Below, one piece after another: positions 2,657 through 55,705 of a stretch of DNA of 64,000 bases (position 1 is the first letter of the stretch; every line of letters starts with the position of its first letter). The notes beneath the pieces are model-generated. The model made no database searches. It saw only the letters and a list, made by a program, of their open reading frames with translations, and had not been told where the DNA came from. The stretch is from Mobula hypostoma (Eukaryota). The translations under genes and the position numbers were made by a program. The stretch spans positions 169,014,001 to 169,078,000 of the forward strand of contig NC_086097.1 in the NCBI RefSeq assembly GCF_963921235.1, read 5' to 3'.

Positions 2657-4882
2657 CAGGGGTGTCAAACTACCGGCCCGCAGGCCGCATCTGGCCCACG
2701 GGACGATCTGGTGAAAAAAAAGTATATTCATGACCATTTATTATGTATCTGTACGGCAGCCGCTCTCTCTCCCACCGTTGTCTGTGCTGCCGGCTGTGCC
2801 CGCAGCTTGTTGTGTGTACTTAGAAAACAACAGGCGGCAGTTAATAACCCGCTGTGCATAAGCGCCTACCACCCTGCACTGAAGACCACTAGGGTCCCAC
2901 TTACGTCGTCAGACACAGTGTAAACACACAGAGTACTCAGGTAAGTAACACCTGTAGCAAGGCTGAGACTGTTTGCTGCTGTGGTTCAAAATGCTTTCCA
3001 AGAAAAGAAAAGTTGACATCGAAGGTGGGATATTCAATGATAATTGGAAAGATCATTTTTTCTTCTGTGAGGTCAATGGCAAACCTACATGTCTGATACG
3101 CTCGCAACAAGTGGCTGTGGGAAAAGTGTACAATATCAAATGACACTATGAGACGTCACACAGAGAAAAATATGACAAGTATGCAGGATGACTCAGAACG
3201 CAAAAGGTAAACGAGCTTGAAGCAGCTCCGAAAAAACAGCAATCAGTGTTCACCAGAAGTCGAGAGACTCACGATGGAGCTGTCAAGGCCAGCTATATCA
3301 TTGCCAACAAAATAGCTGCTGCGTCGAAGCCATACTCAGAGAGGGAATTCATCAAAGCATGCATGCTGACGGCGGCTGAGCTGGTGTGCCTGAGAAGAGA
3401 CAGGCTTTTGGTAATATCAGCTTGTCAAGAAACACTATGGCAGAGAGAACCAGGGACCTTGCAGGAGATTTGAACAGTCAACTAAAAGGCGAAGTGAAGT
3501 CACTTATTGCCTTCTCTATTGCAATTGATGAGAGCACCCACATGACTGATGTAGCTCAGTTGGGAGCATTTATTCGTGGTGTTGATGCATCTTTGATTGT
3601 CATCGAGGAGTTTGTGGAGATGGTGCCCATGACAAACACCACAACGGAGAACGACATTTTCTCCAACTTCATCGAGGCCTTGGACAGACTGGGGGTTGAC
3701 TGGAGTCACGCTGTCAGCGTGGTAACAGATGGCGCACCGTCCATGGTCGGGAAAAAGGCAGGAGTTGCTGTGAAACTCAGAGAGAAAGTTCAGACAGGGA
3801 ATCCAGAGCAGGAATTCTGGAATTTTCACTGTATTATACACCAAGAGGCGTTATGTAGCAGGAGCCTGAAAATGGACAATGTCATAGATGTAGTAATCAA
3901 AACGGTTAATTTTATTAGAGCCAAGGGACTCAACCATTGGCAATTTGACACTCTTTTGTCCGAAAGTAATATCGGACACGGCCTACCCTACCACACTGAA
4001 GTCCACTGGTTGAGCAGAGCGGTTGTGCTCAAACGTTTTTTTCAATTACGTGTGGAAATTAGACTATTCATGAACGAGAAAGGGAAGCCAGTGGCAGAGC
4101 TGGATGACCCAGACTGGCTTCATGATCTTGCATTTTTGGTGGATATAACAGAGCACTTAAGTGTGCTTAATGTTAACATGCAAGGCCGCAACAAACTTGT
4201 TACGGAATACTATGACAGCATTCGTGCCTTTCAAATTAAATTAGGCCTGTGGGAGATGCAACTATCCCAGAGCAACCCAGCTCATTTCCCCTCTTTGCAG
4301 TCTGTGTGTGTCGCTCATGGAAACAATGACAACATGGACAGGTACAAGGACAAAATATCACGGCTGAAAAGTGAGTTTCAGAATTGTTTCCAAGTCTTCT
4401 TCACTCAGCTTGAGAAGGAATTCTCACTATTTTGCTCGTCATTTGCCGTCAACGCAGCATCAGATGTGCCGGAGGAACTCCAAATGGAACTAATTGAAAT
4501 TCAGTGCAACTCAGCTTTGAAATATAAATTTGAGACTGTGGGTCTGGACTTATTCTATCAATACCTGGGACCGAAGTACCACAAGGTGACAGACTTTGCC
4601 TCAAAGATCCTTTGCATGTTCGGGACAACATACCTCTGTGAGCATGCGTTCTCCACAATGAACATTAACAAATCCAAACTGTGCTCGCAGCTGACACACA
4701 GACATCTAAATGACATTAAGAAAATCACAACTGAGACACATGAGAGCAGGTTGAAAAAACGAAGGCAACGAAAGCTATGGGAGCATGCGCGCATGCGTTT
4801 GCACGTGCACAACTGATCCGGCCGCATGACGTCGCATTTTGCCCAATCCGGCCTGTGACCTAAAATGAGTTTGACACCCCTG
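2657..4882 (+). mobile_element. hAT DNA transposon (Buster/Charlie, SPIN/GTF2IRD2-like)
   Basis: Perfect 15-bp TIRs CAGGGGTGTCAAACT (2657-2671 and 4868-4882). Perfect 8-bp TSD CCCTAGAT (2649-2656 and 4883-4890) with central TA, typical of Buster-type hATs. Confidence 0.96.
2991..4816 (+). pseudogene. hAT transposase, frameshifted in the N-terminal third
   Basis: Starts MLSKKRKVD at 2991 with a broken zinc-finger region. ORF 3386..4816 has IDEST, TDGAP, HCIIHQ, HWLS (RW motif altered) and TYLCEHAFS. Confidence 0.88.
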
Positions 4883-6787
4883 CCCTAGATAGATCAAAAT
4901 GTCATCCGCGTAACAGGCCAATTTATGCTCTGTCCCTTTAATAGTAATTCCCCTGATATCTTCATTTTGTCTGATGTATTGAGCTAATGGTTCCAGATAT
5001 AATGCGAAGAGTAGCAGTGACCATGCACAACCCTGTCTCGTGCCCCTTTCTAGGGTAAAACTATTTGATAAATATCCATTGATTTTAATCCTAGCAGTAG
5101 GGTTGTCATATAGTGCCTGTATAGTTTTAATAATTGTATCATGGAAACCAAATCAATGTAAAACTCTGTAAAGAAAATTCCAATTAACCGAATCAAATGC
5201 CTTTTCAGCATCCACGCTCATCACTATTGCTTCGATTTTATTTTTCTGTATATGATCCATAACATGAAGTGTCCTTCGTATATTGTCTTGGGTTTGGCGT
5301 TGTTGTAAAATACCTGTCTGATCCTTATGTATCAGTATGGGTAGAAACTCTTCTAATCGTTTGGCCATGATGGAGGTAAATAATCTATAATCTACATTAA
5401 GAATGGATATTGGTCTAAATGACCCACATGCCATTTTATCCTTGCCATCTTTTGGTATAGCTGAGATTATCGTTTCCTTCCAGCTGGGTGGCATTTGTGC
5501 CTTTTTTAGAGCCCAGTTCATTGTGGGGAGTAAGACAGGAATTAACTCATTTTTAAATTTTTTGAACCACTCTGCCGTCTACCCATATGAACCTGGTGAC
5601 TTGCTTAATTTAAGCCTACTAATTCCAGCTTTTAGTTCAACTTCAGTTATGTCAGCAGTCATCGTTCTATTTTGTTCTTCGCTTAAAGTGGGTAACTCTA
5701 GAGAATTGTGGAAAGCGTCAATATGGGTTATGCTTCCCCCTGGAACTTTGGAATATAAAGTTTTGTAAAACACTTCAAAAGCTTCTTGAATTTCACTTAG
5801 CTTTTTTTTTTATCATTTTTGTTCTTGGATCCCAAATTCTATGAATTATACTTCTTTCTATCTTTTTCTTCAGTTTCCACGCCAGTATTTTCATAGACTT
5901 AGATCCACTTTCATAATGTCTCTGTTTCAGAAACATTAAATTTTTCCTGATTTCTTGCGTAGCCAAACTATTAATTTCATTCCTAATTTTTAAAATTTCC
6001 TCTAATGTATCCTGCGCCAAACTGAATTTGTGTGTTTTTTTAGTTCCTTCAGCCTATTTTTTAATTCCTCTAATGTTTTATTCCTTATTTTTTTCTTATA
6101 TGAAGGTATCACTATAACTTTCCCTCTTAAGACAGCCTTCAGAATATCCCGTAGAATGGGAGGTGAAAGCTCTCCATTATCATTGAATTCTAAGTAAAGA
6201 CCAATTTCTTTTTTAATTTGTTCCTTAAAGTGGAGATCATTGAGTAGGCTTGAATTTAGTTTCCAAATAGTATTCTTTTGTTGTAGGTCAAGATCAACAG
6301 ATAAATATATAAGTGCATGGTCACTTACATCTATTGTCCCAATTCCACAGCTGTTTCTTTTGTTTTTGTCTTTTCCAAATGTTATGAAATAGTCTATTCT
6401 TGTATATACAGAATGGGGGGGGGGGGGAGAATAATGAGTGTAATCCCTTCTGTCCGGGAAAAGGTCCCTCCATATATCAAGTAAACCAATATCTTCAAAA
6501 AGTGTATTAACTCTCTTATGTAAGGATTTTGTTTCATAGGTTTTTCTATTGGAAGAGTCTAATTGTAAATTTAAGTCTCCCCGACATATCAGGAGACCTT
6601 CTGTTTCCGTTACCATAATATTAGTAATTTTCTGAAAGAAACTAATATCACTTCCTGGGGGTGCGTATATATTCAATAGAGTAACTGAATTTCCATCTAT
6701 ATTCCCCCTTTCCGGAATATAGCTGCCCTCCCTATCTCCCATTTTGAATACTTTTTCAAAATTTGGCTTGCTTGAGATAAGAATAGC

Positions 6788-7676
6788 AGATCGGGATAAC
6801 TGCTCAGCCAGGCTTTCCCTCGGTTTGATCACGCTGACGGGCAGCCCTCTGTTCCTCATGTCTGTAGTTGCCTCTTCCACTGTCTGATACAGTTGCATAC
6901 TATCTTCATAAAACACCCGCAGTTTAGCAGGGTACGGAGTTTGGAATCTAATCTTTCCTTGCTTTAATATTCGCTTTACAGCAGAGTATTCTTTACGTTT
7001 CTGCAGGACCGCCAGAGGGTATTCCTGATTGAATTATATTAATTTCCTGTACAAAAACACCCTCTTCTTACCCCAGGCCCTTCGTAGAATTTCCGCCTTG
7101 GTATTATATGGAAGGAATCTAATTACTATTGAGCGTGGCTTATCTTCTCTGTCTCCAGTAGGCCTTGGGACGAGCGCACGATGTGCCCTCTCAGTTTCAT
7201 GCTCCATAGTGGAGGGAATCTCTAGCGCGTCCCGCAGCAACTTTCCTACAAACTCCATCATAGACAAGCCCTCCGTTCCTTCGGGAACATTGTATATCCT
7301 GATATGTTTCCGTCGTGATCTTCCCTCCTGGTCAATCAGTTTACTTTCTTGTTGATATAGTATTTTTATCATCTTACTTAGTATCTGTTTCACATTTTGC
7401 ACGCGATCTTCCACCTTCTCAATTCGAGTCTATGCCACCACTTTTTTTCATTGACATTGGCGAGCTCTGACTTGATATCATTGAGTTGCTGTTTTATATC
7501 GTTTTGGAATCCCCATACCTCTTCCAGAATTTTTATCATATTTGCCGCTTCGCCTGAACGAGGTCCATCGTCAGCCTCGCTAGCACGCGTTCAGGGAGGA
7601 GAGGCATGCGTTGCACCTCTCTCGTCCATAGGCTCCGCAGTGATGCTTTTTTTTAATCTCCATTCTTCTTCCCCAT
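6788..7676 (-). pseudogene. L1 ORF1 (coiled coil/RRM/CTD RNA-binding protein), frameshifted
   Basis: ORF 7034..7414 has L1 ORF1p RRM motifs. The C-terminal part (PYPAKLRVFYED...EEAT) continues in 6788-7030. The start codon position is approximate. Confidence 0.8.
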
Positions 7677-12276: not shown

Positions 12277-12464
12277 CCTGATTCCTGAGAACTGTCAGTT
12301 CTATGTTCCGCATCGTTTTCTGGATACTCTACGTGAACCTTGTCTCTGTGTAAAGACTGTCCTGGATAGCGGTTCCCCGTTCACGGTGGTGCTAATGCCT
12401 AACGACTCCGCCTCCGTGCCTGTGTCCTGCACTTGGGTTCATCCCCAGCCACGTCCTTGCAACA
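12277..12464 (+). repeat. 5' LTR remnant (5'-truncated)
   Basis: 188 bp colinear with 15675-15862, 8 substitutions by eye; ends ...GCAACA. Confidence 0.92.
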
Positions 12465-12481
12465 GAATGAACTGGACAAGT

Positions 12482-15440
12482 ATGAACCCAGCGGACACGG
12501 ACCCTGTGCAACAGGCCCTCGCCAGCCAGGGCTACTTACTGGGTGCCATGACCAACTGCCCAGGGAGACTACTGTGACCCCACCTGTCTTGGAACCCCTC
12601 GACATGTCCAGAGTCCCCACAGAATACCATGACCTGGGACAGGTATTCAGTAAACAACGGGCTCTTTCCCTGCCTCCGCACCGCCCGTAGGATTGTGCCA
12701 TTGACCTTCTCCCTGGGGCCTCACTACCCACCAGTTGTCTTTATAACCTATCCCGACCGGAGAGAGAGGCCATGGAGAGATACATTAGCGAGTCTCTCGC
12801 AGTGGCAGGCATTGGTAAACCTTCATCCTCCCCGGTAGGTGCCAGTTTCTTTTTTATAGAAAAGAAGGATGGGTTGCTTTGTCCTTGTATTGATTATCAA
12901 GGCCTAAATAATATAACAGTTTGAAAATAAGTACCCACTACCCCTCATTAGTTCATTTGAACCACTGCATGGAGCCACCATCTTCTCGAAGTTAGACCTT
13001 TGTAATGCATACCATCTAGTCAGGATGAGGGAGGGGGACGAGTGGATGACGACCTTTAATACACCTCTAGGCCACTTTGAATACTTGGTCATGCCGTTTG
13101 GCCTCACCAATGCTTCTGCTGTTTTTGAAGCCCTAATCAATGATGTGCTGTTACTAATGAGATGTTACTAATCGCTTCGTATTCGTTTACCTTCATGATA
13201 TCTTGATATTTTCTAGCAGCCCCCAGGAACACATTCACCATGTCTGTCTAGTCCTCCGGAGACGGGAAAACCAGTTTTTTTTTTATTTGTGAAGGTGGAG
13301 AAATGCGAGTTCCACGTTCCTTTGGTCAGCTTCCTGAGCTATATCACTGAGAGCGGGCAGGTGAGAGCAGACCCCGAGAAAATCCGGGCAGTGGAAGAAT
13401 GGCCTAGGCCCACGACCCGCAAGCAACTTCAGCGATTCCTGGGGTTTGCGAACTTCTACCGCTGATTTATCAGAGACTACAGTCGAGTGGCAGCCCCCCT
13501 TACCCGGCTTACCTCGCCTACCACACCTTTTTGTTGGGACTCTGAAGCTGACTCGGCGTTCACTGGCTTGAAGAGGCGTTCTACCACCGCTCCCATCCTT
13601 GTCCATCCGGACCCTTTCCGCCAATTCATTGTTGAGGTGGACGCCTCTGACTCCGGGATAGGAGCAGTCCTGTCTTAACAATCAAGTTCACACGAAAAGC
13701 TTCACCCCTGTGCCTTCTTTTCTCATCGACTGTCCCCTGCCAAGCGGAATTACGACATGGGGAATCAGGAACTACTGACAGTCAAACTAGCATTGGAAGA
13801 ATGGAGGCACTGGCTGGAGGGGGCAGAACACCCGTTTGTTGTGTGGACTGATCATAAGAACCTGGGTTATATTCAGACTGTCAAACGTTTGAACTCTCGC
13901 CAGGCCGGTTGGGCATTATTTTTTGGATGGTTCAAGTTTTCCCTCACATACCATCCAGGGTCCAAGAACGGGAAGCCGGACGCACTCTCCCGCCAATATG
14001 ACTCCAAGTAGGACACTCCAAGCCCAGAGACTATCCTCTCACCATCCTGCGTGATGGCAACCCTCACTTGGGAGATCGAGTCCAAAGTAAAGGAAGCCCA
14101 ACGGGACGACTCTGACCCCACCAATGGACCTGGCATCTGTATGTGCCTGATTCCGTCAGATCCCAGGTTCTCCAGTGGGGGCACACATCTCAGTTCACCT
14201 GCCACCCTTGGAGTGATCGGACCCTGGCTCTCCTGAAAGGACACTTTTGGTGGCCTTCCATGGAGGCGGATACCCGTTCCTATGTCTTGGCATGTTCCAT
14301 CTGTGCCCATGGAAAAGCCTCTCATCGGCTACCTGCGGGGTTACTTCGTCCTCTACCTGCCCCTGGTTGTCCCTGGTTGCAAATCGCCCTAGATTTCATC
14401 ACTGGTCTACCCCCTTCCCGCAGAAGCACCACTGTCCTCACCGTGGTAAACCGGTTCTCCAAGATGGTGTACTTTGTAGCCCTCCCCAAACTCCCCTCTG
14501 CTCAGGAAACTGCAGACCTTCTCGTCCGCCACGTCTTCCGCCTCCACGGAATCCCTATGGACATAGTCTCCAATTGAGGTACGCAGTTTGTCTCGCAGGT
14601 ATGGGAGGCTTTCTGTCAAACCTTAGGTGCATCGGTCAGCCTGTCATCCAGCTTCCACTCCCAGACGAATGAGCAGACGGAACGGGTCAACCAGGATTTG
14701 GAGGCGATGCTACGTTGGGTAACAGCAAACAACCCATCTACCTGGAGCGACCACCTCCCGTGGGTTGAGTACACCCACAACTCTCTGGTGAGTTCTGCCA
14801 TTGGAAGGTCTCCCTTCGAGTGTTCCCTTGGGTACCAACCCCTGCTGTTCCCCGTGCAAGAAGAGGAGATTGTGGTGCCTTCTGTTCAGAACCATATTGA
14901 TCGGTGCCTTAAGGTTTGGGAGGAGACACGCACAGTCCTACTCAGATCAGCAAACCGCAATAAGAAGACTGCCGACCGACACCGGACTCCGGTGCCTAAG
15001 TACCGACCTGGGCAGATAGTGTGGCTTTCATCCAAGGACATCCCACTCTAAAATGAGCCTAGGAAACTCGCCCCTCGCTTCCTGGGACCATTCAAGGTCG
15101 AAAGGGTCATCAATCCCACAGCAATCCGACTTAAACTGTCAAGATCTATGTGCATCCACCCTACCTTTCATGTTTCCCGATTAAAGCCAGTTTCTGTCAG
15201 CCCCTTGTGTCCTCCGACTGAGTCTCCCTCACCTGCCCATATCATCGGCAACCATCCGGCATACACCATCCGACTACTGGATGTGCACCATCGGGGCAGG
15301 GGTTTCCAGTACCTGGTAGACTGATGGGGGGGGTGGGGGTACCTGAGAAGAGCGTTCCTGGGTTCCCTGCCCCTTCATCCTGGACCCTTCCCTCATCCAG
15401 GACTTTCATAAGGACCATCCAGACAAGCCTGGAGGATCGC
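12482..15440 (+). pseudogene. gag-pol remnant: gag N-terminus fused to RT-RNase H-integrase-chromodomain
   Basis: Motifs [90 protein letters not shown] and FQYLVD...SWVP. Multiple stops and frameshifts. Confidence 0.9.
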
Positions 15441-15471
15441 CTGGAGGCTCCTGTTGTGGGGGGGGGGGTAA

Positions 15472-15862
15472 TGTCATGGTCCTGTCTGGCAATTCCCCAC
15501 CTTGCTATTACCTCAGCAATTGGGCCTCAATCCCCTCATCTAATTTCCAATCCTTCCCAGTTCCACTAATTACACACACCTGCCTTCCATCAGTAAATGC
15601 AGGATAAAAACCCTGTAATCACAACAAGGAGCTGCCAGTTCATTGGTCGACTCTAGTGTGAGTAAACCTTGTTTCCTGATTCCTGAGAACTGTCAGTTCT
15701 AAGTTCCGCATCGTTTCCTGGATACTCTACATGAACCTTGTCTCTGTGTAAAGACTGTCCTGGATAGCGGTTCCCCGTTCACGGTGGTGCTAATGCCTAA
15801 TGACTCTGCCTCAGCGCCTGTGTCCTGCACTTGGGTTCATCCCCGGCCACGTCCTTGCAACA
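15472..15862 (+). repeat. 3' LTR (TG...CA, 391 bp)
   Basis: Starts TGTCATGG after the PPT and ends GCAACA. TATA-like GATAAAAA at 15603-15610. Confidence 0.92.
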
Positions 15863-17264: not shown

Positions 17265-19590
17265 CTGGTAGGATCCCTTTGGGGATGGTGGAAGTTGCAG
17301 AGAATTACATGTTGGATGCAGAGGCTGATGGAGTGGTAGGCCAAGAGGATCTCAATCACTATTACAGTAATAGGAAGATGGGGTGAGTGCAGATGTGTGG
17401 GAAATGGAAGAGATGTGGGTGAGAGTAGCATCAATAGAAGAGGGAGGAAAACTCTGTTAGAAACATAGAAACCCTACAGCACAATATAGGCCATTCGGCC
17501 CACGATGCTGTGCTGAACATGTACTTACTTTAAAAATTACCTCGGGTTACCCATAGCCCTCTATTTTTCTAAGCTCCACGTACCTATCCAGGAGTCTCTT
17601 AAAAGACCCTATTGTATCTACTTCCACCTTTGTTGCCGACAGCCTATTCCACGCACTCACCACTCTGCATAAAAAAACTTACTCCTGACATCTCCTCTGT
17701 ATCTACTTCCAAACATCTTAAAACTGTGCCCTCCCGTGTTAGCCATTTCAGTGCTGGGAAAAAGCCTCTGCCTATCCACATGATCAATGCCTCTCATCAT
17801 TTTATACACCTCTATCAGGTCACCTCTCATCCTCTGTTGCTCCAAGGAGAAAAGGCCAAATTCACTCAACCTATTCTCATAGGGCATACTCCCCAGTCCA
17901 GGCAACATCCTTGTAAATCTCCTCTGCACCCTTTCTATGGATCCACAAAGCAAGATCCCCTTGGATCCCATGCCTCCTTCCTTTCTCAATAAGCCTTGCA
18001 TGGGTACCTTATCAAATGCCTTGCTGAAATCCATATACACTACATCTACTGCTCTACCTTCATCAATGTGTTTAGTCATATCCTTAAAAAATTCAATCAG
18101 GCTCGTAAGGCATGACCTGCCTTTGACAAAATCATGTTGATTATTCCTAATCATATTATGCCTCTCCAAATATTCATAAATCCTGCCTCTCAGGATCTTC
18201 TCCATCAACTTACCAACCACTGAAGTAAGACTCACTGGTCTATAATTTCCTGGGCTATCTCTACTCCCTTTCTTGAATAAGGGAACAACATCTGCAACCG
18301 TCCATCCTCCAGAACCTGTTCTTTAAAGAAGGAGGATGTCTCTGATGTTCTGGAATGGAAAGCTACATCCTGAGAACAGATGCGGCAGAGGCAAAGAAAC
18401 TGAGAAAAGGGAATAGCATTTTTACAGGAGGTAGGGTGGGGGAAGAGGAATAGTTGAGATAACCGTGGGAATCAGTAGGTTTATAAAAGATGTCAGTTGA
18501 CAAAAAGGTCAAGAAAGGGGAGGGAGGTGTCAGAGATGGACCAAGTGAATTTAAGGGCAGGGTGGAAGTTAGAGGCAAAATTGATAAAATTGATGAGCTC
18601 AGCATGAGTGCATGAAACAATGCCAGTGCAGTGAGGAAGATTTGGGGAGTATAACCTGAGAAAGCTTCGAACATAGACTGTTTTATACAGCCGATGAAGA
18701 GGCAGGCATAGCTAGGGCACATACGACTGCCCATGTCTATCCCTCAAGTTTGGAGAAAGTGTGAGGGGCCGAAGGAAAAATTGTTCAGGGTGAGCACCAG
18801 TTCTGCCAGATGGAGGAGGATGTTGTTGGAAGGGGATTGATTGGCTCTTTTGTCACGAAAGAAGTAGAGTGCTTTGAGGCTTTCCTGATTGGGGACAGGA
18901 GTGTATAGGGACGGATTATCCATGGTGAAGATGAGGTGGTCAGGGCCAGGGAATTGAAAGTTACTGAATAGATTTATGGCATGAGAAGTATTGTGAATGC
19001 AGGTGGGAAGGGACAAAAACAGGCAGAGACGATAGGCTTACCCAGACAGTCCAGTCTGTGAATCTTGGGTAGGACTCAGAAGCAAGCAGTGCAGGGCAAG
19101 GGTACTATGAGCATTAGTGACAGTGGTTGGGAGTTCTCCAAGTGGAAGAGGTCAGTGATAGTATCAGAGATGGTTTTCTGATGGTAGGTAGTGGGGTCCT
19201 CCTCAAGATATGAGGAGGTGTCTCAGAGTTGCCACCTGGCCTCGGCAAGGTAGAGGTCAGTATACCACACTACAGCAACACTCCTTTTGTCTACCATTTT
19301 GATGGTAAAGTTGGGATTGGTGCGGAGAAAGTGGAGGGCAGTTCATTTGGAAGGGGTAAGGTTGAAGAAGGAGAGAGGAGTGTTGAATTCAAGACTGATG
19401 TCTCATCGGCAATTAGAGATGAAAAAATCCAGATCAGACAGTGAATCAGAGGGGGATTTCCAAGCAGCGCGGAAGGGTTGGAGATGGAAGAAGGCGTTAT
19501 CAGCACGAGGCGTGGAATCTTTGTCAAAGAAATGGGCTCGGAGACAGGGGTGACAGAAGAAGAGCTTGACAATGTGGCCAGCGTGTAATG
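17265..19590 (-). mobile_element. Penelope-like element RT region, decayed, split by a CR1 insertion
   Basis: LTLNNFSFGPSHFLQ, MGSRMCPSYACLFIG, TDIFYKPTDSHGYLNY and AYHSISLCIQHVILCNFHHPQRDPT are PLE-type RT and thumb motifs. No GIY-YIG domain is visible in this copy. Confidence 0.8.
17459..18315 (-). mobile_element. 5'-truncated CR1 with an internal deletion, inserted in the PLE
   Basis: Flanked by CTGTT (17454-17458 and 18316-18320). ORF 17657..18235 jumps from early RT (DFSKAFDKV) to the C-terminal ERVQRRF region near 17940. Confidence 0.85.
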
Positions 19591-19757
19591 CTTATGTAGA
19601 AATATTTTGTTGCTGCCTAACTCAGTTGTGTAAATTAGATAGAGTTCTGCAACTCTTTGCTCTAGACATTATTGATTCAAGATAGGAACTGAACACACCA
19701 CCTACAATAGAATAGCAGATCAAAACTGAACTGCAGCAACAAAAAAAATAAGGTACT

Positions 19758-20150
19758 TACACTCAATGGACACTTTATTAGGTATAGGAGGTGGCTAATA
19801 AAGTGGCCACTGACTGTATGTGTTTCTGCTTGCTGTAGCCCATCCACTTCAAGGTTCGACATATTGTGCATTCAGAGATGCTCTTCTGCACATCACTGTT
19901 GCAACGTGTGGTTATTTGAGTTACTCTTGCCTTCCTGTCAGCTTGAAACAGTCTGGCCATTCTCCTTTGATCTCTCTCATTAACAAAACATTTTTTGCCC
20001 ACAGAAGTGGTGCTCACTGGATGTTTTCTTGTTTTCGCACTATTCTCTGTAAACTATAGAGGCTGCTGTGTGTGAAAATCCCAAGAGATTGGCAGTTTCT
20101 GAGATATTCAGACCATCCCGTCTGGCACCAACAATCATTCCATGGTCAAA
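19758..20150 (-). mobile_element. Tc1/mariner non-autonomous remnant with a terminal mini-palindrome
   Basis: ORF 19778..20017 resembles the Tc1 DNA-binding region (ERDQRRMARL...ISECTICRTLKWMGY). Inverted repeat 19758-19781 / 19795-19818 is bounded by TA. Confidence 0.75.
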
Positions 20151-25699: not shown

Positions 25700-26184
25700 T
25701 GTAACTCTAGTGTAATTTTGGTAAATCCACACTGAATTTCCTCTACTATCTGAACTACCTAGTATGAGGTGTTCGAAGATGCCAATAGCATTCCATGCCT
25801 GATCTAAGAAGAGTGTAACTGAGCTGCAGCGGAACTTCTAATCTCTTTTTCCTCCACAAAACCTTGAACATTTTGTAGCCTCCTAGATCTGTGGCCATCC
25901 TATGTGAAACTACCATTTGAATCCCAGTAGTCTCTTCTATATCCAAAGGATTAGTTGTTACTGCAGTACAGTCACACTGAATTAAAGCTCAGCCATGATC
26001 TTGTTGAATGGCAGAACAAATGAGAAGCCAAGTGGCATTCTCCAGCTTTTTTAACTTCTGTTCTTATTCAGTTCTGGCCAAAAAAACAATAAAAAATTAA
26101 ATCGACGCTAAAAATACATATAAAGCCAAGCTGCATATACAAAGAAATAAAAGAGAGCACCTACGCTCCATTTACCAGAAAAAG

Positions 26185-26665
26185 TGGATACCTTGTATTC
26201 CGACCAGGTGACCTCCAACCTGATGGCATGAACTTCGATTTCTCGAACTTCCAGTAATTGCAAACTCCACCCCCCCAACACCATTCCCCACTCCTATTTA
26301 CCTCCCTCACCTCCTTACCTGTCCATCACCTCCCCCTTCCCTTTCTCCACAGTCTTCTACCCTCTCCTATCAGAATCCCCCTTCTCCAGCCCTATATCTC
26401 TTTCACCTATCAACTTCCCAGCTATTTACTTCACCTCTCCCCGTCTCCCGGTTTGACCTATCACCTACCACCTTGTACTTCTTCCTCCCCTCCTCCACCT
26501 TCTTACTCTGAATTCTCATCTTTTTTTCCAGTCCTGATGAAGGGTCTCAGACCAAAACATCGACTGTTTATTCTTTTCATAAATGCTGCCTGGCCTGCTA
26601 AGTTCCTCCAGAATTTTGTGTGTGTGGCTTGGATTTTCAGCATCTGCAGATTTTCTCGTGTTTGA
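26185..26665 (+). mobile_element. PLE 3' end (ORF C-terminus plus pyrimidine-rich terminal repeat) with a degenerate hammerhead
   Basis: Ends an ORF as ...LQPDGMNFDFSNFQ*, like a PLE GIY-YIG C-terminus. CAGTC-CTGATGA...AAAA-CATC-GACTG at 26529-26566. Tail ...catctgcagattttctcgtgtttg. Confidence 0.75.
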
Positions 26666-32043: not shown

Positions 32044-33676
32044 CAGGTTTCCCCTGCCATCCGAAGGTACAGCATTCCTATGAAACGGTTCGTAAGCCGG
32101 AATGTCGTAAAGCGAAGAAGCAATTACCATTTATTTATATGGGAAAATTTTGTGAGCATTCGCAGACCCAAAAATCATCTACTAAATCATACCAAATAAC
32201 ACATAAAACCTAAAATAACAGTAACATATAGTAAAAGCAGGAATGATATGATAAGTACACATCCTATATAAAGTAGAAATACTTTTCCACAATTATTGCC
32301 GGCACTGTTCTCCGTAGCGAAAATCTCACGCAAGCGCTCTTGGCAGAAACACGGCACGAGCGCTCTCCAGTAACCTCTAAGCGATGAAGCTGACAAATCA
32401 TACCAAATAACACATAAAAATACACAGCCTATATAAAGTAGAAATAAGGTATGTACAGTGTAGTATCACTTACGGGAATCGGGAAGACAGCGCAGAGCAC
32501 ACTGATGATGGTGTGTTAGGCTGAGTCGTCGGAGTTTGGGTGGTGCAGTGGCCCTCACCCTCCAGGCAGCGAACCGATACCGATCCACGAAGCATGCAGG
32601 CGTCCAGCGGTAGCCAGGAGGCACACAGCACATCTTTAAGAAAAAAGCCAAAATAAACATGCTAATTAATTAGGTGCTGCCCGGCACGTAATTGTCGGCC
32701 CAGATCAGAGACGATTGCTGATTGCATAACCTCTGATCTGGGCCGACATTTACATGCCCGGCGGCACCTAATTAATTAGCATGTTTATTTTGGCTTTTTT
32801 CTTAAAGATGTGCTGTGTGCTTCCCGGCTACCACTGCATTCTCCGCAGATCGGTATCTGTCCGCAGCCTGGGGGTTGGGGTGGTGGGACACTGGGGTGTC
32901 ATCTCACCGTGGTCTGCTTCCATTAGGGCAGGCAGCTCATCTTCTCCTATGACTGCCCGCCTCGATGTCGAAGGTCAAGGTTCATTGTCTGATGTGGCTG
33001 ATGTGGAAGGCTTGCTTGACTGCTGAGCCTCGCGCATTTTTAGATCATATAGTTCTTTGTAAGCACTCAAACCATCTTGCAAATATCCCCTAAACCGACG
33101 TACCCTTTCAAAATTAAAGTCGTACTTTATCATTGCAGCGAAAATCTCACGCAGTCGCCTCATGTTCAGTTCCTGGATGACTTCACTTTCGCTACTGAAT
33201 TCAGTTTCAATTGTTATCCTTTCCTCTTCCAATTGCATCAGCTCTTCATCTATCAGTTCTTGGTCATGGGATGCCAAAACCTCTTCAACATCATCTTCAT
33301 CAACTTCCACAAGCCAAACTCACTTTGTCCTTACTTCGTTCATCACGATCGAAACACTTAATTATGTCTAGTTTTATGCTAAGTGTAACACCCTTACGAG
33401 CTCTTTCAGGCTTTTCTGATACCTTAGAACTCATCTTGCTAACGGCTGCTCACAGACATGTGTTTAAGCAATGCCGGCGAGAATGCAGTTCTGAATCCGG
33501 GGGAGAGCGCCTGCTGGGGGTGCGCACTGATTTTTATCGCGTGCTGCTTTTTTTCGCATGCTGCCTTTTCTCGTAACAGTGAAAACACCTTCTGTTAGCG
33601 AAAACAGGTACTAATGTAGGTCTTTCGTAACAGTGAGATTTCGTAAAGCGAATGTTCAAAAAGCAGGGGACACCTG
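32044..33676 (-). mobile_element. Tigger/pogo non-autonomous DNA transposon
   Basis: TIRs CAGGTTTCCCCTGC and GCAGGGGACACCTG (13/14); TA TSDs at 32042-32043 and 33677-33678. N-terminal HTH (MSSKVSEKPERARKGVTLSIKLDIIK from 33434) abuts a Tigger C-terminus (EVDEDDVEEVLASHDQEL). Confidence 0.88.
32605..32836. repeat. Long inverted repeat (about 106-bp arms, 20-nt spacer)
   Basis: 32605-32710 is the near-perfect reverse complement of 32731-32836. The ORF track shows MFILAFFLKMCCV on both strands. Confidence 0.95.
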
Positions 33677-34732: not shown

Positions 34733-34750
34733 CTGAATGACTTAAATATG

Positions 34751-35229
34751 ATAAAAATTAAATATCTCCAACCTGATGGCATGAACATCGACTTCTGTAA
34801 CTTCCCTTAATGCCCCTCCTCCCCTTTGTACCCTTATTTATTTATTATTATCATTATTATGATTTTTTTTCTTTCCCCTTTTATTCACTCTTTTTTCTCC
34901 CTCTGTCCTTCTCACTATAACTCCTTGCCCATCCTCTGGGCTTCCCCCCTGCCCTTTTCTTTCTCCCTAGGCCTCCCGTCCCATGATCCTCTCCCTTCTC
35001 CAGCTTCGTATCCCTTTTGCCAATCAACTTTCCAGCTCTTAGCTCCATCCCTCCCCCTCCTGTCTTCTCCTAACATTTCGGATCTCCCCCTCCCCCTCCC
35101 ATTTTCAAATCTCTTACTATCTCTTCTTTCAGTTAGTCCTGACAAATGGTCTCGGCCCAAAACGTCGACTATATCTCTTCCTATAGATGCTGCCTCGCCT
35201 GCTGTGTTCACCAGCATTTTTTGTGTGTG
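34751..35229 (+). mobile_element. PLE 3' end with a degenerate hammerhead, inserted in the hAT
   Basis: 13-bp TSD TGACTTAAATATG (34738-34750 and 35230-35242). LQPDGMNIDFCNFP* ORF end. TAGTC-CTGACAA...AAAA-CGTC-GACTA at 35134-35171. Confidence 0.85.
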
Positions 35230-36892
35230 TGACTTAAATATGTATGTTATTTATTCTGTGCAGTTTTATGTCAAATATTTTGTAAACCTACATAAACTGT
35301 CCCATGTGTGCATTCAGTGCACACATACTTTGTCACAGGAAAAAACTTTGTACAACATAAGATTTTTGCGCACACTGACTGCTAAAAATTAGAGGGAGCA
35401 TTGGAGATGAGAGGTAATGTTGCAGCTATATAGGACCCTGGTCAGACCCCACTTGGAGTACTGTGCTCAGTTCTGGTCGCCTCACTACAGGAAGGATGTG
35501 GAAACCATAGAAAAGGTGCAGAGGAGACTTACAAGGATGTTGCCTGGATTGGGGAGCATGCCTTATGAAAACAGGTTGAGTGAACTCGGCCTTTTCTCCT
35601 TGGAGCGACGGAAGATGAGAGGTGACCTGATAGAGGTGTATAAGATGCTGAGAGGCATTGATCGTAAGTCAGAGGCTTTATCCCAGGGCTGAAATGGCTG
35701 CCACAAGAGGGCACAAGTTTAAGGTGCTTGGGAGTAGATACAGAGGAGATGTCGGGGGTAAGTTTTTTTACGCAGAAAGTGGTGAGTGCATGGAATGGGC
35801 TGCCGGCAACAGTGGTTGAGGTGGCTACGGTAGGGTCTTTTAAGAGACTTTTGGATAGGTACATGGAGCTTAGAAAAATAGAAGGCTATGGGTAATCCTG
35901 GTAATTTCTAAGGTAGGGACATGTTTAGCACAACTTTGTGGGCCGAAGGACCTGCAATGTGCTATAGATTTTCTATGTTTCTATATTAGGGTAGCTTACA
36001 CTGATCTTAATATTCTCTATATCCCTCTCCTCAGTAATTCTAATGCTAAGTAATTTAGTACTTCACCGGCATCTTCTGACACCAAGCACAAATGCCCTCC
36101 TTTATCCCTGAATGGTCTTACCCTCTCCCTAGTTATCCTCTTGTTTTAAATGTACTGAAATAATGTCCTGGGGTTCTCTTTAACCGTCCCTGCCAAGGAC
36201 ATTTCTTCTCCCCTTTTAGCCCTTCTAATTCCTTTCTCCAGATTTTTTTTAATTTTTTTAATATTTCTCAAAGACCCTGTCTGAGATCAGCTTCCTAAAC
36301 CTTACATGTACTTCCTTTTTAGTTTTGAGTAAATTTATAACCTTTCTCATCTTCCATGGTTCCCTTTTCTTACTGACTTTGTCCTTCTTCCTTACTGAAT
36401 TCTGGCCAGGTGGTCTTTAAATCACTTCCACATGTCAGATGTGGACTAACCCAACAACAGCTGCTCCCAATTTACTTTCCCAAGCTCCTGCTTAATGATG
36501 CTGCAATTTGCCCAGCCCCAATGTAAAACTTTCCCTCTAGCTCCAGTCTTATTTTTACTCATAGCTAAGTATTAATCACTGTTTCTAATATGCTCTACCA
36601 CTAAAACATTAGTCACCTAGTCAGGATCGTGTCCCAATACAAGATACAGTATGGCCCCTGCTCCAGTTGAACTATCTACATACTGTTCAAGACACTCAAG
36701 CAAAGTCTGCCCATCCTATACTTGCACATCTGCTCCTCTATCTCTTGCTGGCTGTTAACATAGAACAGTACAGCACAGTACAAGCCCTTCAGCCCACAAT
36801 GTTGCACCGACTTTTTAACCTACTCCAAAGATCAAACTAAACCTTCCCTCCTACATAGCCCTCCAGTCTTTCATTCATGTGTGTGTCTTAAG

Positions 36893-38035: not shown

Positions 38036-38352
38036 AATAAAGAGTTTCTTCAATGTCTCTAATGTATCAGCCTCTGCCAACACCACCAGCATTTCACACA
38101 CTTACCACTCTGTGTAAAAAATCTCCTTTTGACAATTCCCCTATACTTCCCTCTAATCTCCTTAAAATCATGCCCTCTTTCCCATTGCTGCACTCTATCC
38201 ATGTCTCTATCAAAGTCACACACATTAAAGTTGCTGGTGAACGCAGCAGGCCAGGCAGCATCTCTAGGAAGAGGTACAGGCGATGTTTCAGGCCGAGGCC
38301 CTTCGTCAGGACTAACTGAAGGAAGAGCTAGTAAGAGATTAGTTTACTCTTA

Positions 38353-39150
38353 GGTAGATGGATAGATATACTTTATTAATCCCAAGGGAAATTTGGTTTC
38401 GTTACAGCCGCACCAACCAAGAATAGAGCGTAAATATAGCAAAACAAAAACCACCAACAAACAACAAAATGCAAACTATGCCAGATGGAAAATAAGTCCA
38501 GGACCAGTCTACTGGCTCAGGGTGTCTGACCCTCCACGGGAGGTGCTGCACGTTCGATGGCCACAGGCAGGAACGACCTCCCGTGCCGCCAAGTGTTGTA
38601 TCGCGGTGGAATGTGGCCGAAGTCCAACAGTAAAAAGTTCAATATCCAGTCTGCAAACACGTTCCTCGATCGTAATATGCCCCGGATTGCACCATCCGTT
38701 GTTAACCAGATCAGTAAGCACCCAACTCCTTTACGCTTACCGCTCTCAGTGCACTTCCGGTCAGCCAGAACGGTATTACCCACCGAACTCCTGTTCTCCA
38801 TAAGTCCCTGTTGTCTCGACCCGGTCCTCTTTCCTTGACTTTGTGAACCCCCTCCGCATCCTCTGTGTTTTTCTCCGGATTTCAGCTCGCTAAACCAGTC
38901 GGCATTAGCTGGTTTCTGGAATACACAATGCAACCTTGCTTCTGTCCCGCGTGTTGGGATGTAACCATTTCCAGCGCTAAAAAAGACCCAAATAAAACTC
39001 TCTCTACCAGCATGTTAAAGAGGGTGCAGCTTCGACGTGTTACCGTGAGAAAAAAAATACAAAAAATAACGTAAATTAAAAAGTAAGAAGAGAGTAAGAA
39101 TAGATCGGAACGGCTGTACCAGGCTGCATGCACAACCGGCGCATGCGCAC
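38353..39150 (-). mobile_element. Internally deleted Rex1/Babar LINE (5' end plus EN fragment fused to the extreme 3' end)
   Basis: EN fragment VNNGWCNPGHITIEERVCRLDIELFTVGLRP is joined to the C-terminal RYNTWRHGRSFLPVAI. 3' tail aatttcccttgggattaataaagtatatctatc. Confidence 0.75.
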
Positions 39151-39179
39151 TAATAGCTCTTACTAGCTCTTCCTTCAGT

Positions 39180-39217
39180 TAGTCCTGACGAAGGGTCTCA
39201 GCCTGAAACGTCGACTG
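39180..39217 (+). ncRNA. Minimal type-I hammerhead ribozyme motif (predicted)
   Basis: Stem I TAGTC/GACTG, core CTGACGA 39185-39191, stem II AGG...CCT, GAAA 39205-39208, GTC triplet 39210-39212. Stem III is only the palindrome ACGT. Confidence 0.75.
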
Positions 39218-40278
39218 TACCTCTTCCTAGAGATGCTGCCTGGCCTGCTGTGTTCACCAGCAACTTTGATGTGTGTTGCTTGAATTTCCAGCATCTGCAG
39301 AATTCCTGGTTGTTTGCTCTATCAAGTCACCTGTCATTTTCCTTCACTCAAAGAGAAAAGCTCTAGCTTGCTCAACCTTTTCTCATAAGATGTGATCTCT
39401 AATCAAGAGAGAATCCGGCAAATCTTTTCTGAATATCCTCTTCTATTGAATGGGCTACAATGTAATCTCATCAGTGATTGCACTTTTTCTATTTTTGACC
39501 TCTATCCATATTTTCTCAGTGGATTGGCCCTCCAATAATGATGTAAATAATTATACTCTAGAGACATCTGTGAAATTAAAACTACAAAAAATTGAACACA
39601 AATTTGATAAGTGGCAAATTAATATGTTTCAAGACATGTTTCGTGCAGACATGCAGAACTAATGCCATTAGGCATCTTCACAGTTCACAATGAAACAATT
39701 TGGTTACAGGTAACAATAAGAAAAAAAATGAGTTTACTTAATCTACTTTTTTTTAATCTTTCCTTGGGGTACACACTAGCGTATTGATCAAGCAGTTATT
39801 TTAAAAATTTCCCCTTGATAAGGCTACTTTAAATAAGGGGTTTAGATAAATTTATGCACCAAATCATTTTCTTCAAACTGGACAAACCAGGAAATTCCTT
39901 TTTTTATGGTGCCAGATTATAAATTTACAAGAAATTTAGCTTTAAATGTTTATCTATGAGTTTAATTTTGTGGAGCTGGAACTTCTTTTGTTTTTTTTCT
40001 CACTATTTTAAATGCACGTGTATGTTTTGCACCTTGGCCGCCGAGGAAGGCTGTCGTATTTGGCTATGTCCATGTATGGTTGAATGATAACTAAACCTGA
40101 TTTGATTTGATTTGATTTGGATGTCGCAATTAAAGCAGATCAAAGTTTTTAAGAATAAAGAATTTAATTATGTCATGTCAATAACGGCATTGTATTCCGT
40201 ACCTTTTGTCATCCATGTGAGTAAAAAACTTCCATTTATTCTTGTGTTTCTAGGTAAAGCAAATGGCCATAATTAACT

Positions 40279-40510
40279 CAAACACGAGGAAATCTGCAAA
40301 TGCTGGAAAGTCAAGCAACACACACAAAATGCTGGTGGAACACAGCAAGCCAGGCAGCATCTATAGGAAGAGGTACAATCGACGTTTCGGGCCGAGACCC
40401 TTCGTTGGACTTCATTAGTCCTGACGAAGGGTCTCGGCCCGAAACGTTGACTGTACCTCTTCCTATAGATGCTGCCTGGCCTTCTGCGTTCCACCAGCAT
40501 TTTGTGTGTG
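40279..40510. mobile_element. 232-bp palindromic PLE-derived element with two opposed hammerhead motifs
   Basis: Arms about 40319-40411 and 40417-40510 with a 5-nt spacer. 15-bp TSD tggccataatt(a/g)act at 40264-40278 and 40511-40525. Confidence 0.9.
40416..40453 (+). ncRNA. Minimal type-I hammerhead ribozyme motif (predicted)
   Basis: TAGTC-CTGACGA(40421-40427)-AGGGTCTCGGCCC-GAAA(40441-40444)-C-GTT-GACTG; GUU cleavage triplet. Confidence 0.7.
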
Positions 40511-40614
40511 TGGCCATAATTGACTAGAACTTTTGGAAAAATTCTGGCATTCATCAGGACAGGCATCATTACATTGTACTAATGCCTAGCAGTGAAACCT
40601 GAACTTGGGGTTGT

Positions 40615-41115
40615 TCTTCAATTACACTAGGTGACCTACCACCAAATCTGCCCAGTTCACCAAGGACTCATCGTTTCCTTCCATCAAATCCATCTTCCTG
40701 GTGCATTCCTTCAGTAAGGCTAATAATATCATTAAGAATGCCTGCCACTCTGGCCATTCTCTTTGTTCCCTTTGATCTTCTGGGATAAGATATAAAAGCT
40801 TCAAAGCCAGGATGACCAGATTCAAGAACAGCTTCTTCCCCACTACTACCTGATGTGATTCTGAACCAATCACATCTTTCACATCCCCTTCCCAGTGGCA
40901 GTCTTAGAAACTTAATTCTACCTCTCTCAGTTATTCCAGTATTGCCTCAAATCAGATTACTGCACAATCTTTACACTACTCTGTTGTTTTGCAATTACTG
41001 CTGTTTTTATCGTTGTATTTATTATTGCCATGTGCACTGATTACTCTGTGGGCTGTATGCAAGTAAGGAAGTTCACTGCATTCTGGCATACCTGACAATA
41101 AACTAATCTGATCTG
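40615..41115 (+). mobile_element. Old Rex1-type 3' fragment
   Basis: accagattcaagaacagcttcttcccc (TRFKNSFFP) and tail tgacaataaactaatctgatctg. Confidence 0.6.
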
Positions 41116-53374: not shown

Positions 53375-55705
53375 GAACATTAGACATAGGAAATGAATTA
53401 GGCCATTCAGCCCATTGAGTCTGCTCCACCATTTCATCACGGCTGATGCCATATCCCACTCAACCCCACACACCTGCCTTCTTGCCATATTCTTTGATGC
53501 CCTGACCGATCAGGAAACATGCAACTTCCACTTTAAATGAACACAGACTTGGCCTCCACCACAGTCTCTGGCAGAGAAATCCACAGATTCACTACTCTCT
53601 GGCTAAAAAAAATTCCTCCTTAACTCTGTTCTAAAAGCTTGTCCCTCAATTTTGAGGCTGTGCCCTCTAGCTTGGATACCCCCACCATAGGAACCATTCT
53701 AGCCACATCCACCCTATCTGGTCCTTTCAACATTCATTAGGTTTCAATGAGATCCCTACGTATTCTCCTGAATTCCAGTGAGTACAGGTCCAAAGATGCC
53801 AAATACTCTGCATATGTTAACCCCTTCATTCCCAGAATCATCCAAGGCAACCAACTCTGGACTCTCCCCAATGACAACACATCGTTTCTGAGATATGGAG
53901 CATTGTAGGAAGTCATTCCTGCCTGTGGCCATCAAACTTTACAACTCCTCCCTTGGAGGGGCAGACATCCTGAGCCAATAGGCTGGTCCTGGACTTATTT
54001 CACAATTTACTGGTATAATTTACATAGTACTATTTAACTATTTATGGTTCTATTACTATTTATCATTTATGGAGCAACTGTAACAAAAACCAATTTCCCC
54101 CAAGATTAATAAAGTATGACTATGACTATGTTCTATCCCCCTTGAAATAAAAGCCAACATTGCATTTGCCTTCTTTACCACAGACTCAACTTATAAATTA
54201 ACCTTCTGGGAGTCTTGCAAAAGGACTCTTAAGTCCCTCTGTATATCTGATCTTTGAACCTTCTTCCCATTTAGATAACAGTCCACACTATTGTTCCTTT
54301 TGCCAAAGTACACTATCATACATTGCCCAGCACTGTATTCCATCTGTCACTATTTTGCCCATTCTTCCAATTTGGCTAAGTCCTGCTGGAACCACGTTGC
54401 TTCCTCAGCACCACCTACTTCTCCACCTATTTTTGTATCATCCACAAACTTTGCCACAAAGCCAACTCCATTATCCAAATCACAGATAAACAATATGAAA
54501 AATCTCTGAGGAATACCACCTGTCACCGGCAGCCAAACAGAACAGGCCCCCTTTTATTCCCATTTACTGACTCCTGCCTGTCAGCCATTCCTCTATCCAT
54601 GCCAATATCTTTCCTGTAATGCTACAGGATTTTATCTTGTTAAGCAACCTCATGTACCCAACCAAATACCTTCTGAAAATCCAAGTAAATGACATCCACT
54701 GCCTTTCCTTTGTCCACCCTGCTTGTTACTTCCTTGAAGAACTCTAGCAGATCCGTCAGGCAAGATTTTCCTTTACATAAACCATGCTGACTTTGACTTA
54801 TTTTATCATTAGTCTCCAAGTACGCCAAAACCTCATCCCTTAAGAATAGACTCCAACACTTTCACAGCCTCTGAGGTTAGGCTAATTGGCCTATAATTTC
54901 TTTTCTTTTGGAGTTACATTTGCAATCTTCCAGTCCTCTGGAACCATACCAGAATCAAGTGATTCTTGAAAGATCATGACCAATGCATCCGTTATCTCTT
55001 CAGCAACCTCTCTCAAGACTCTGGGATATAGTCCATCTGGTCCAGGTGACATCCATCTTAAGACCTTTGAGGTTGCCTAGCACTTTTTCCTTTTCCTTTT
55101 TTTTAGATTATGAGGACACTCAGTCCTCGTTTATTGTCATTTATTATCACTTGTCAAGAGATTTTACTAGCTCTTCCTTTAGTTAGTCCTGACGAAGGGT
55201 CTCGGCCCAAAACGTCGACTGTAGCTCTTCCTAGAGATGCTGCCTGGCCTGCTGCGTTCACCAGCAACTTTGATGTGTGTTATGTACGGCACCCTACTTG
55301 ACAAATAACAGACATCACCACCAGAGAGGCCACTGTGAGCTGCGTTGCGCCGCCATCTTCTCCTCCTGCCTATTGTATTAGTATTAGCAATGGCACTCAC
55401 TCCTGTTCCCTGACACTTACTGACCTCTGGCACACTGCTAGTATCTTCCACAGTGAAGACAGATGAAAAGTATCCATTAAGTTCATCTGCCATTTCTTTG
55501 TCCCCAATTACTACCTCACTAGCATCATTTTCCAGTGGTCTAATATCAACTCTCACCTCCCTTTTATTCTATATATAACTGAAAAAACTTTTAGTATCCT
55601 GCATTATATTTTTGGCTAGTTTGCCTTCATATTTCATCTTTTCCCTTCTTATAGCTTTATTAGTTGCCTTTTGATGGATTTTAAAAGCTTCCCAATCATC
55701 CAAGT
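53375..55705 (-). mobile_element. CR1 LINE with nested insertions (Rex1 tail about 53900-54130; composite 55095-55370)
   Basis: ORFs 54640..54828 (SCLTDLLEFF) and 55179..55556 (EMADELNGYFSSVFT). Confidence 0.85.
55160..55280 (+). mobile_element. PLE terminal-repeat fragment with a hammerhead motif, inside a short non-autonomous element (55095-55370, minus)
   Basis: TAGTC-CTGACGA(55189-55195)-AGGGTCTCGGCCC-AAAA-CGTC-GACTG. The host element has AAGATGGCGG at its 5' end and a tgacaataaa tail. Confidence 0.75.

Follow-up and report, generated by a model that had tools for sequence, protein, structure and literature searches.

The 64-kb stretch of DNA analyzed here (the window) contains a 232-nt insert at positions 40279 to 40510, flanked by 15-nt direct repeats that are identical at 14 of 15 positions (Table 1). 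Alignment of the arms bore out the original prediction that two Penelope-like element (PLE) 3′ ends lie head-to-head with the 3′ ends facing outward, that a 3′ tail of ~40 nt is present on the left arm only, and that this copy is noncoding (it has no open reading frame). The target-site duplication predicted for the locus was likewise confirmed: a match at 14 of 15 positions has a chance probability of ~1 × 10−7 at the exact ends and 2 × 10−4 over 45 × 45 offsets. Because the first T of the repeat may be element sequence, the duplication is given as 14 to 15 bp.

Positions 40319 to 40405 pair with 40424 to 40510 at 82 of 87 sites, the longest perfect run being 29 bp, and the center of the insert forms a 5-bp stem with a 5-nt loop. 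The RNA hairpin has a computed folding energy of −189 kcal/mol (z = −24; none of 200 shuffled sequences was equally stable), and the minus-strand RNA one of −195 kcal/mol. The hairpin, which had been described as perfect, is thus found on both strands but is only near-perfect. None of its five mismatches is compensatory and two are at CpG sites, as expected under neutral decay.

The terminal repeat harbors a hammerhead motif, which we called by hand from its match to the minimal motif of PMC4209133. The right arm keeps an intact minimal core (40421 to 40444) with stem I, the CUGANGA box, an extra A, stem II, GAAA, and a palindromic CG; its cleavage triplet ends in UU, that of other copies in UC. 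Of the two opposed hammerheads originally proposed, only this one has an intact core, while alignment to the other arms reveals one lost and one changed base in the CUGANGA box of the left arm. An Rfam scan of the window (E ≤ 1) gave six matches, none of them to a hammerhead, and the hammerhead segment of the family had no match in metagenome_contigs. In agreement with the expectation that the hairpin would outcompete ribozyme folding, forcing the ribozyme fold in the full insert costs ~46 kcal/mol and the stem II pairs have a probability of ~10−21, so that the intact core is predicted to be buried within the full insert. A match to MIR6154 over the center (32.6 bits versus a gathering score of 100) was rejected, as it merely reflects the hairpin. 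Elsewhere in the window, two further short hairpins (32690 to 32751 and 19755 to 19821) have weak microRNA-family matches far below the gathering scores; they are probably remnants of transposon inverted repeats.

Table 1. Coordinates of the features that make up the insert and its target-site duplication
Feature	Positions	Strand	Support
Left target-site duplication copy (14 to 15 bp)	40264–40278	+	14/15 identical to 40511–40525; single copy at the empty site of organism C
40-nt PLE 3′ tail, left arm only	40279–40318	−	Same end base as tailed copies at 39316 and 26664; tail of 30 to 40 bp in PMC8557442
Left arm, 5′-truncated PLE terminal repeat	40319–40411	−	81 to 88% identity to 5 of 5 other window arms; 82/87 complementary to right arm
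Decayed minimal hammerhead of left arm, catalytic box broken	40377–40411	−	Alignment to other arms; no intact core on the minus strand
Center junction, 2 bases common to both arms plus 5 nt	40410–40416	+	Seven-arm alignment; once in the window at ≤3 mismatches
Right arm, 5′-truncated PLE terminal repeat, tail-less	40417–40510	+	End common to copies at 38218, ~35230, and 55281
Minimal type-I hammerhead motif, predicted to be buried in the long hairpin	40417–40452	+	By-hand match to the motif of PMC4209133; motif search; folding
Right target-site duplication copy	40511–40525	+	14/15 identical to left copy; empty site in organism C

Assignment of the Repeat to a PLE Family

The window contains seven arms of this repeat in all, five of them outside the insert. 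In their alignment, three end at the tailed end and four at the tail-less end 40 nt earlier. We compared the window with contigs from four of the 24 runs listed, X1 (organism A), X5 (organism B), X9 (organism C), and X15. X1, probably from the source sample itself, does not provide independent support. In all three DNA runs, loose contig ends with unrelated flanks accumulate at 40313 to 40314. Summed contig depth is ~10^6 over the arms and ~11 on the flanks, a figure that is not a copy number but shows the family to be very abundant.

Two sister copies in the window carry C-terminal residues of the protein P0001 at ~300 to 350 nt upstream of the repeat (tblastn E = 1.7 × 10−4 and 0.031). P0001 is a ray protein with reverse transcriptase (RT)-like and GIY-YIG parts, the GIY-YIG match (E = 8 × 10−4) lying below the Pfam curated cutoff. 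It was retrieved with a decayed PLE RT fragment from elsewhere in the window (2 hits among 305 candidates), and its relative P0002 has an RT match (RVT_1, E = 1.5 × 10−7). The location of the P0001 C terminus upstream of the repeat in the sister copies indicates that the repeat is the 3′ terminal repeat of an endonuclease-bearing PLE. Other traits of such elements are also present, namely an inverted 5′-truncated copy on the 5′ side of the insertion, a one-sided tail, a target duplication that is single at the empty site, and a hammerhead motif in the repeat. Judged from these sequence features, the focal repeat appears to belong to an endonuclease-bearing PLE, to which it is linked through the sister copies. 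A cysteine-rich linker is visible in both P0001 and P0002; that of P0001, taken together with the account in PMC8557442, suggests a Neptune-like family.

Additional PLE-related sequences are scattered over the window. On the minus strand, the segment at 17267 to 19612 is a degenerate PLE RT coding region that contains stops and frameshifts and is interrupted by a LINE-like RT fragment (~17657 to 18300). Three single-arm copies were observed: one at 26150 to 26664 that is tailed and has an apparent internal deletion in its endonuclease end, a tail-less one at 34750 to 35232 with a duplication of ~13 bp, and one at 55156 to 55281 that is entangled with another repeat.

Filled and Empty Sites in Related Organisms

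Organism C possesses an empty site. On a 723-nt contig (X9 record 26), positions 40080 to 40263 and 40511 to 40650 map next to each other; 40263 is joined directly to 40511, and the 247 nt that are skipped equal the 232-nt insert plus one 15-nt target copy. An orthologous empty site with one target copy, which had been proposed as a check of the original prediction, therefore exists. The filled site recurs in organism B, where one contig (X5 record 23) begins at 40468, 43 letters inside the element, and continues across the right junction, and another (X5 record 18) includes the left junction and 26 letters of the tail. In X1 (organism A), both outer junctions match exactly, with 24 to 25 letters inside the element. 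Coverage at the left junction (25 to 26 letters inside the element) is below the 31-letter bridging rule.

The flanks differ from the window at 16 of 1,048 positions in organism B and at 43 of 990 in organism C. Given these differences, and a site that is filled in A and B and empty in C, the insert was most simply acquired by a shared ancestor of A and B. The alternative history, in which organism C lost the insert through a precise deletion between the 15-bp repeats, is less parsimonious. Presence or absence of the insert can also be scored as a marker, by which organisms A and B fall together to the exclusion of C.

From X15, which we guess to be an RNA run, a 229-nt contig with a depth of 3.6 matches the left flank exactly (40024 to 40252); it may represent pre-mRNA or DNA carry-over. 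No locus-specific piece over the element is among those listed for X15, which is no evidence either way.

A Second Head-to-Head Unit and Other Arm-to-Arm Joints

Another head-to-head unit of the same PLE family is located ~1 kb away, at 38205 to 39330. It is enclosed by its own 13- to 15-bp duplication, in which one base differs in an A run, and its tail is on the right arm only, so that the rule of one tail per unit holds in both head-to-head units of the window. Both of its arms have subfamily-diagnostic bases different from those of the focal arms. Its junction lies ~35 to 40 nt further upstream than the focal one and is interrupted by a nested element of ~800 bp (~38344 to 39148). The different subfamily and junction mark the two units as independent events.

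The focal center junction itself has a single match in the 64-kb window at ≤3 mismatches. In the run contigs, which have 326 further arm-to-arm joints, at least 13 distinct left-arm ends occur among the 15 joints listed. The letters between the arms are known for four of these 15, and all four differ from the focal junction; for the other 11, listed as “between: not known” with a short side of 20 to 35 letters, exact placement is not possible. The deepest joint listed (window positions 40376 to 40417) connects an inverted arm ending ≤4 nt from the predicted hammerhead cut to an arm that starts at stem I. It reaches a depth of 360 in X1 (two contigs), ~33 times the flank depth of 11, while its depth is 7.9 in X9 and 0 in X5. 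Some junctions therefore recur, and this one could reflect either a hot spot for microhomology or the amplification of a small subfamily of mini-palindromes.

How the Insert Was Formed

Five nucleotides lie between the arms (40412 to 40416), as had been predicted for the spacer, but their sequence is not foreign: in the seven-arm alignment, they correspond, except for one missing base, to the family sequence that immediately precedes the right arm. The two preceding bases (40410 to 40411) are common to both arms, and the junction has the appearance of two arms that were truncated separately and then joined across ~2 common bases. Being sense-strand upstream sequence, the spacer favors two separately primed cDNAs over fold-back copying; copying back along the left-arm cDNA would not supply it, which points to separate templating of the arms. 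This argument rests on one junction and needs the one-base gap.

We consider it likely that this very short head-to-head insertion of an abundant PLE, absent at the organism C site, arose in one event, with reverse transcription primed from both nicked target strands and the resulting short cDNAs then joined to each other. Priming by both target strands, which the original prediction had inferred, is plausible and fits both in vitro work (PMC11167929) and the spacer. In such an event, the GIY-YIG endonuclease would cut the two target strands ~15 bp apart. One 3′ end would prime at the start site at the end of the tail and the other at an internal start site 40 nt upstream, and synthesis of both cDNAs would end close to the 5′ edge of the hammerhead. 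The two cDNAs would then be joined through ~2 bases of microhomology, and repair would fill the stagger. The resulting copy was likely dead on arrival and would have undergone neutral decay thereafter; a transcript, if made, would fold into a ~90-bp hairpin that buries the sole intact ribozyme core and that might, as originally suggested, be a Dicer or ADAR substrate. The rule of one tail per unit would not be accounted for by this scheme, as PMC11167929 reports no start-site difference between the strands.

Alternatively, the second arm could have been made in a single event by self-priming, with the first cDNA or an antisense RNA folding back at a short palindrome and being copied back to the tail boundary. 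Palindromes at inverted PLE junctions are read in this way in PMC3846280, which prefers self-priming for head-to-head junctions, and the center of the focal insert is a 5-bp stem with a 5-nt loop. Both focal arms also carry the same subfamily bases, which fits copying from one template as well. We nevertheless regard self-priming as unlikely, because the loop reads as the sense-strand upstream sequence of the right arm and not as the continuation of the left cDNA, and because extension of both strands has been demonstrated in vitro (PMC11167929).

A fixed mini-palindrome might also be transcribed and reinserted as a unit by the PLE machinery, which would make the insert a member of an amplified nonautonomous palindromic family, or retro-MITE. 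The tailed arm retains the 3′ end that the protein would presumably need, judging from PMC11167929, and the deepest joint, located where the stem I strands overlap close to the predicted cut, has the elevated X1 depth given above. For the focal insert, however, such an origin is very unlikely. Its junction occurs once in 64 kb, the neighboring unit is of another subfamily and has another junction, and the joints listed are heterogeneous. In each DNA run, moreover, 65 to 97 contigs depart from the right arm at 40415 and continue with the usual upstream sequence of the family, and a copied transcript would not obviously yield a tail-less second end flush with the duplication. Formation at insertion is thus likelier than an amplified MITE-like family.

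Finally, an assembly fold-back artifact, or two independent insertions at one site, is extremely improbable: inverted PLE structures do trouble assemblies (PMC8557442) and the center junction is spanned by none of the 32 contig pieces listed, to which 121,405 others are to be added, but the arms differ at 5 of 87 sites as well as in the hammerhead core, one duplication encloses both arms, the empty site has one target copy, and both outer junctions recur in organism B, which together argue strongly against an artifact.

Comparison with Known Elements

Insertion by priming from both target strands has a counterpart in the twin priming of mammalian L1, in which, as reportedly described by Ostertag and Kazazian in 2001, the second target strand primes a second cDNA and an inversion with a short-microhomology junction arises within one duplication. 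L1 twin priming is said to invert an upstream part of the RNA and to give arms without overlap, whereas both focal arms copy the same 3′ end, and the product is therefore a palindrome.

Retrozymes carry hammerheads in direct tandem repeats, from which monomer RNA is released. A retrozyme was rejected for the focal insert, as its motifs are inverted and one is broken. The insert is also not a MITE: its left end has 40 unpaired nucleotides, and its arms are PLE 3′ ends rather than the inverted repeats of a DNA transposon. MITEs as described in PMC8969392 are like the focal insert in being short, noncoding, and bounded by inverted repeats, but in the insert a 40-nt tail offsets the inverted repeat, the duplication is long, and each arm is the 3′ end of a retroelement.

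The special status that had been implied for the palindromic insertion is not supported. An inverted, 5′-truncated copy and a tail of 30 to 40 bp at one end constitute the standard PLE layout (PMC8557442, PMC3846280, PMC8969392). Canonical units (Fig. 2 of PMC8557442; Pen2a_Av of Adineta vaga in PMC3846280) share with the focal insert the head-to-head arms within one duplication, the one-sided tail, and a hammerhead in the terminal repeat. In the focal insert, by contrast, no open reading frame is present and almost the entire sequence is hairpin, and the duplication is 14 to 15 bp compared with 8 to 10 bp in the A. vaga examples. The focal copy lies at the short end of this published layout and differs only in degree, with both arms cut back to the terminal repeat. 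In mostly open-access literature, including the available parts of PMC9004415 and PMC5753468, we came across no description of short, all-hairpin PLE insertions from sharks or rays.

A study from 2014 (PMC4209133) already described dual minimal hammerheads on opposite strands, separated by 100 to 700 bp. Like the focal motif, the minimal hammerheads of metazoan PLEs described there have stem I, CUGANGA, an extra base before stem II, GAAA, and a palindromic two-base remnant of stem III. The focal motifs, in contrast, are directly adjacent to each other; one has a broken core, and folding predicts burial of the intact one.

A biochemical parallel is PAc, the PLE protein of Anolis carolinensis, which cleaves and extends both strands in vitro, prefers 5′-ATT-3′, and initiates at two internal sites that form the boundaries of the tail, ribozyme cleavage being dispensable in vitro (PMC11167929). 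Its target is AT-rich with ATT, and the focal duplication contains ATT. PAc is a Poseidon element, while the cysteine-rich linker of P0001 suggests that the focal family may be Neptune-like. The available part of PMC11167929 describes neither joined head-to-head products nor a rule of one tail per unit.

As a single locus, the insert matters little, since its layout is published and the copy is likely dead. It is useful, however, as a clean footprint: the empty site is proven, each arm has its native 3′ end flush with the duplication, and the junction favors separate templating of the arms. It can be viewed as a compact in vivo counterpart of the anole in vitro reaction with its two strands and two start sites. 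Tabulating many such units could allow a choice between dual priming and self-priming and help with the rule of one tail per unit. A broader proposal, which we regard as decidedly unlikely, is that two-ended PLE integration seeds ray-type genomes with very many near-perfect hairpins of 60 to 100 bp, which would be the main endogenous double-stranded RNA substrates of ADAR or Dicer, like inverted Alus in primates; some of them, e.g., those with the recurrent stem I junction, would be remobilized as a nonautonomous retro-MITE family.

Other Mobile Elements in the Window

Several other elements were observed in the window. An open frame of 478 codons (stop to stop) lies on the plus strand at 3380 to 4816, between pieces of a minus-strand element (2298 to 2669 and 4775 to 7429). 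Judged by its motifs, the frame reads like a hAT-type transposase, and the flanking pieces are probably L1/Tx1-like. The segment at 12277 to 15862 contains 188-nt direct repeats with 96% identity; the frames between them are presumably Gypsy-like RNase H and integrase, and the frame at 226 to 837 likewise reads to us as integrase-like. The segment at 12277 to 15862 is likely a fairly young copy of an LTR retrotransposon.
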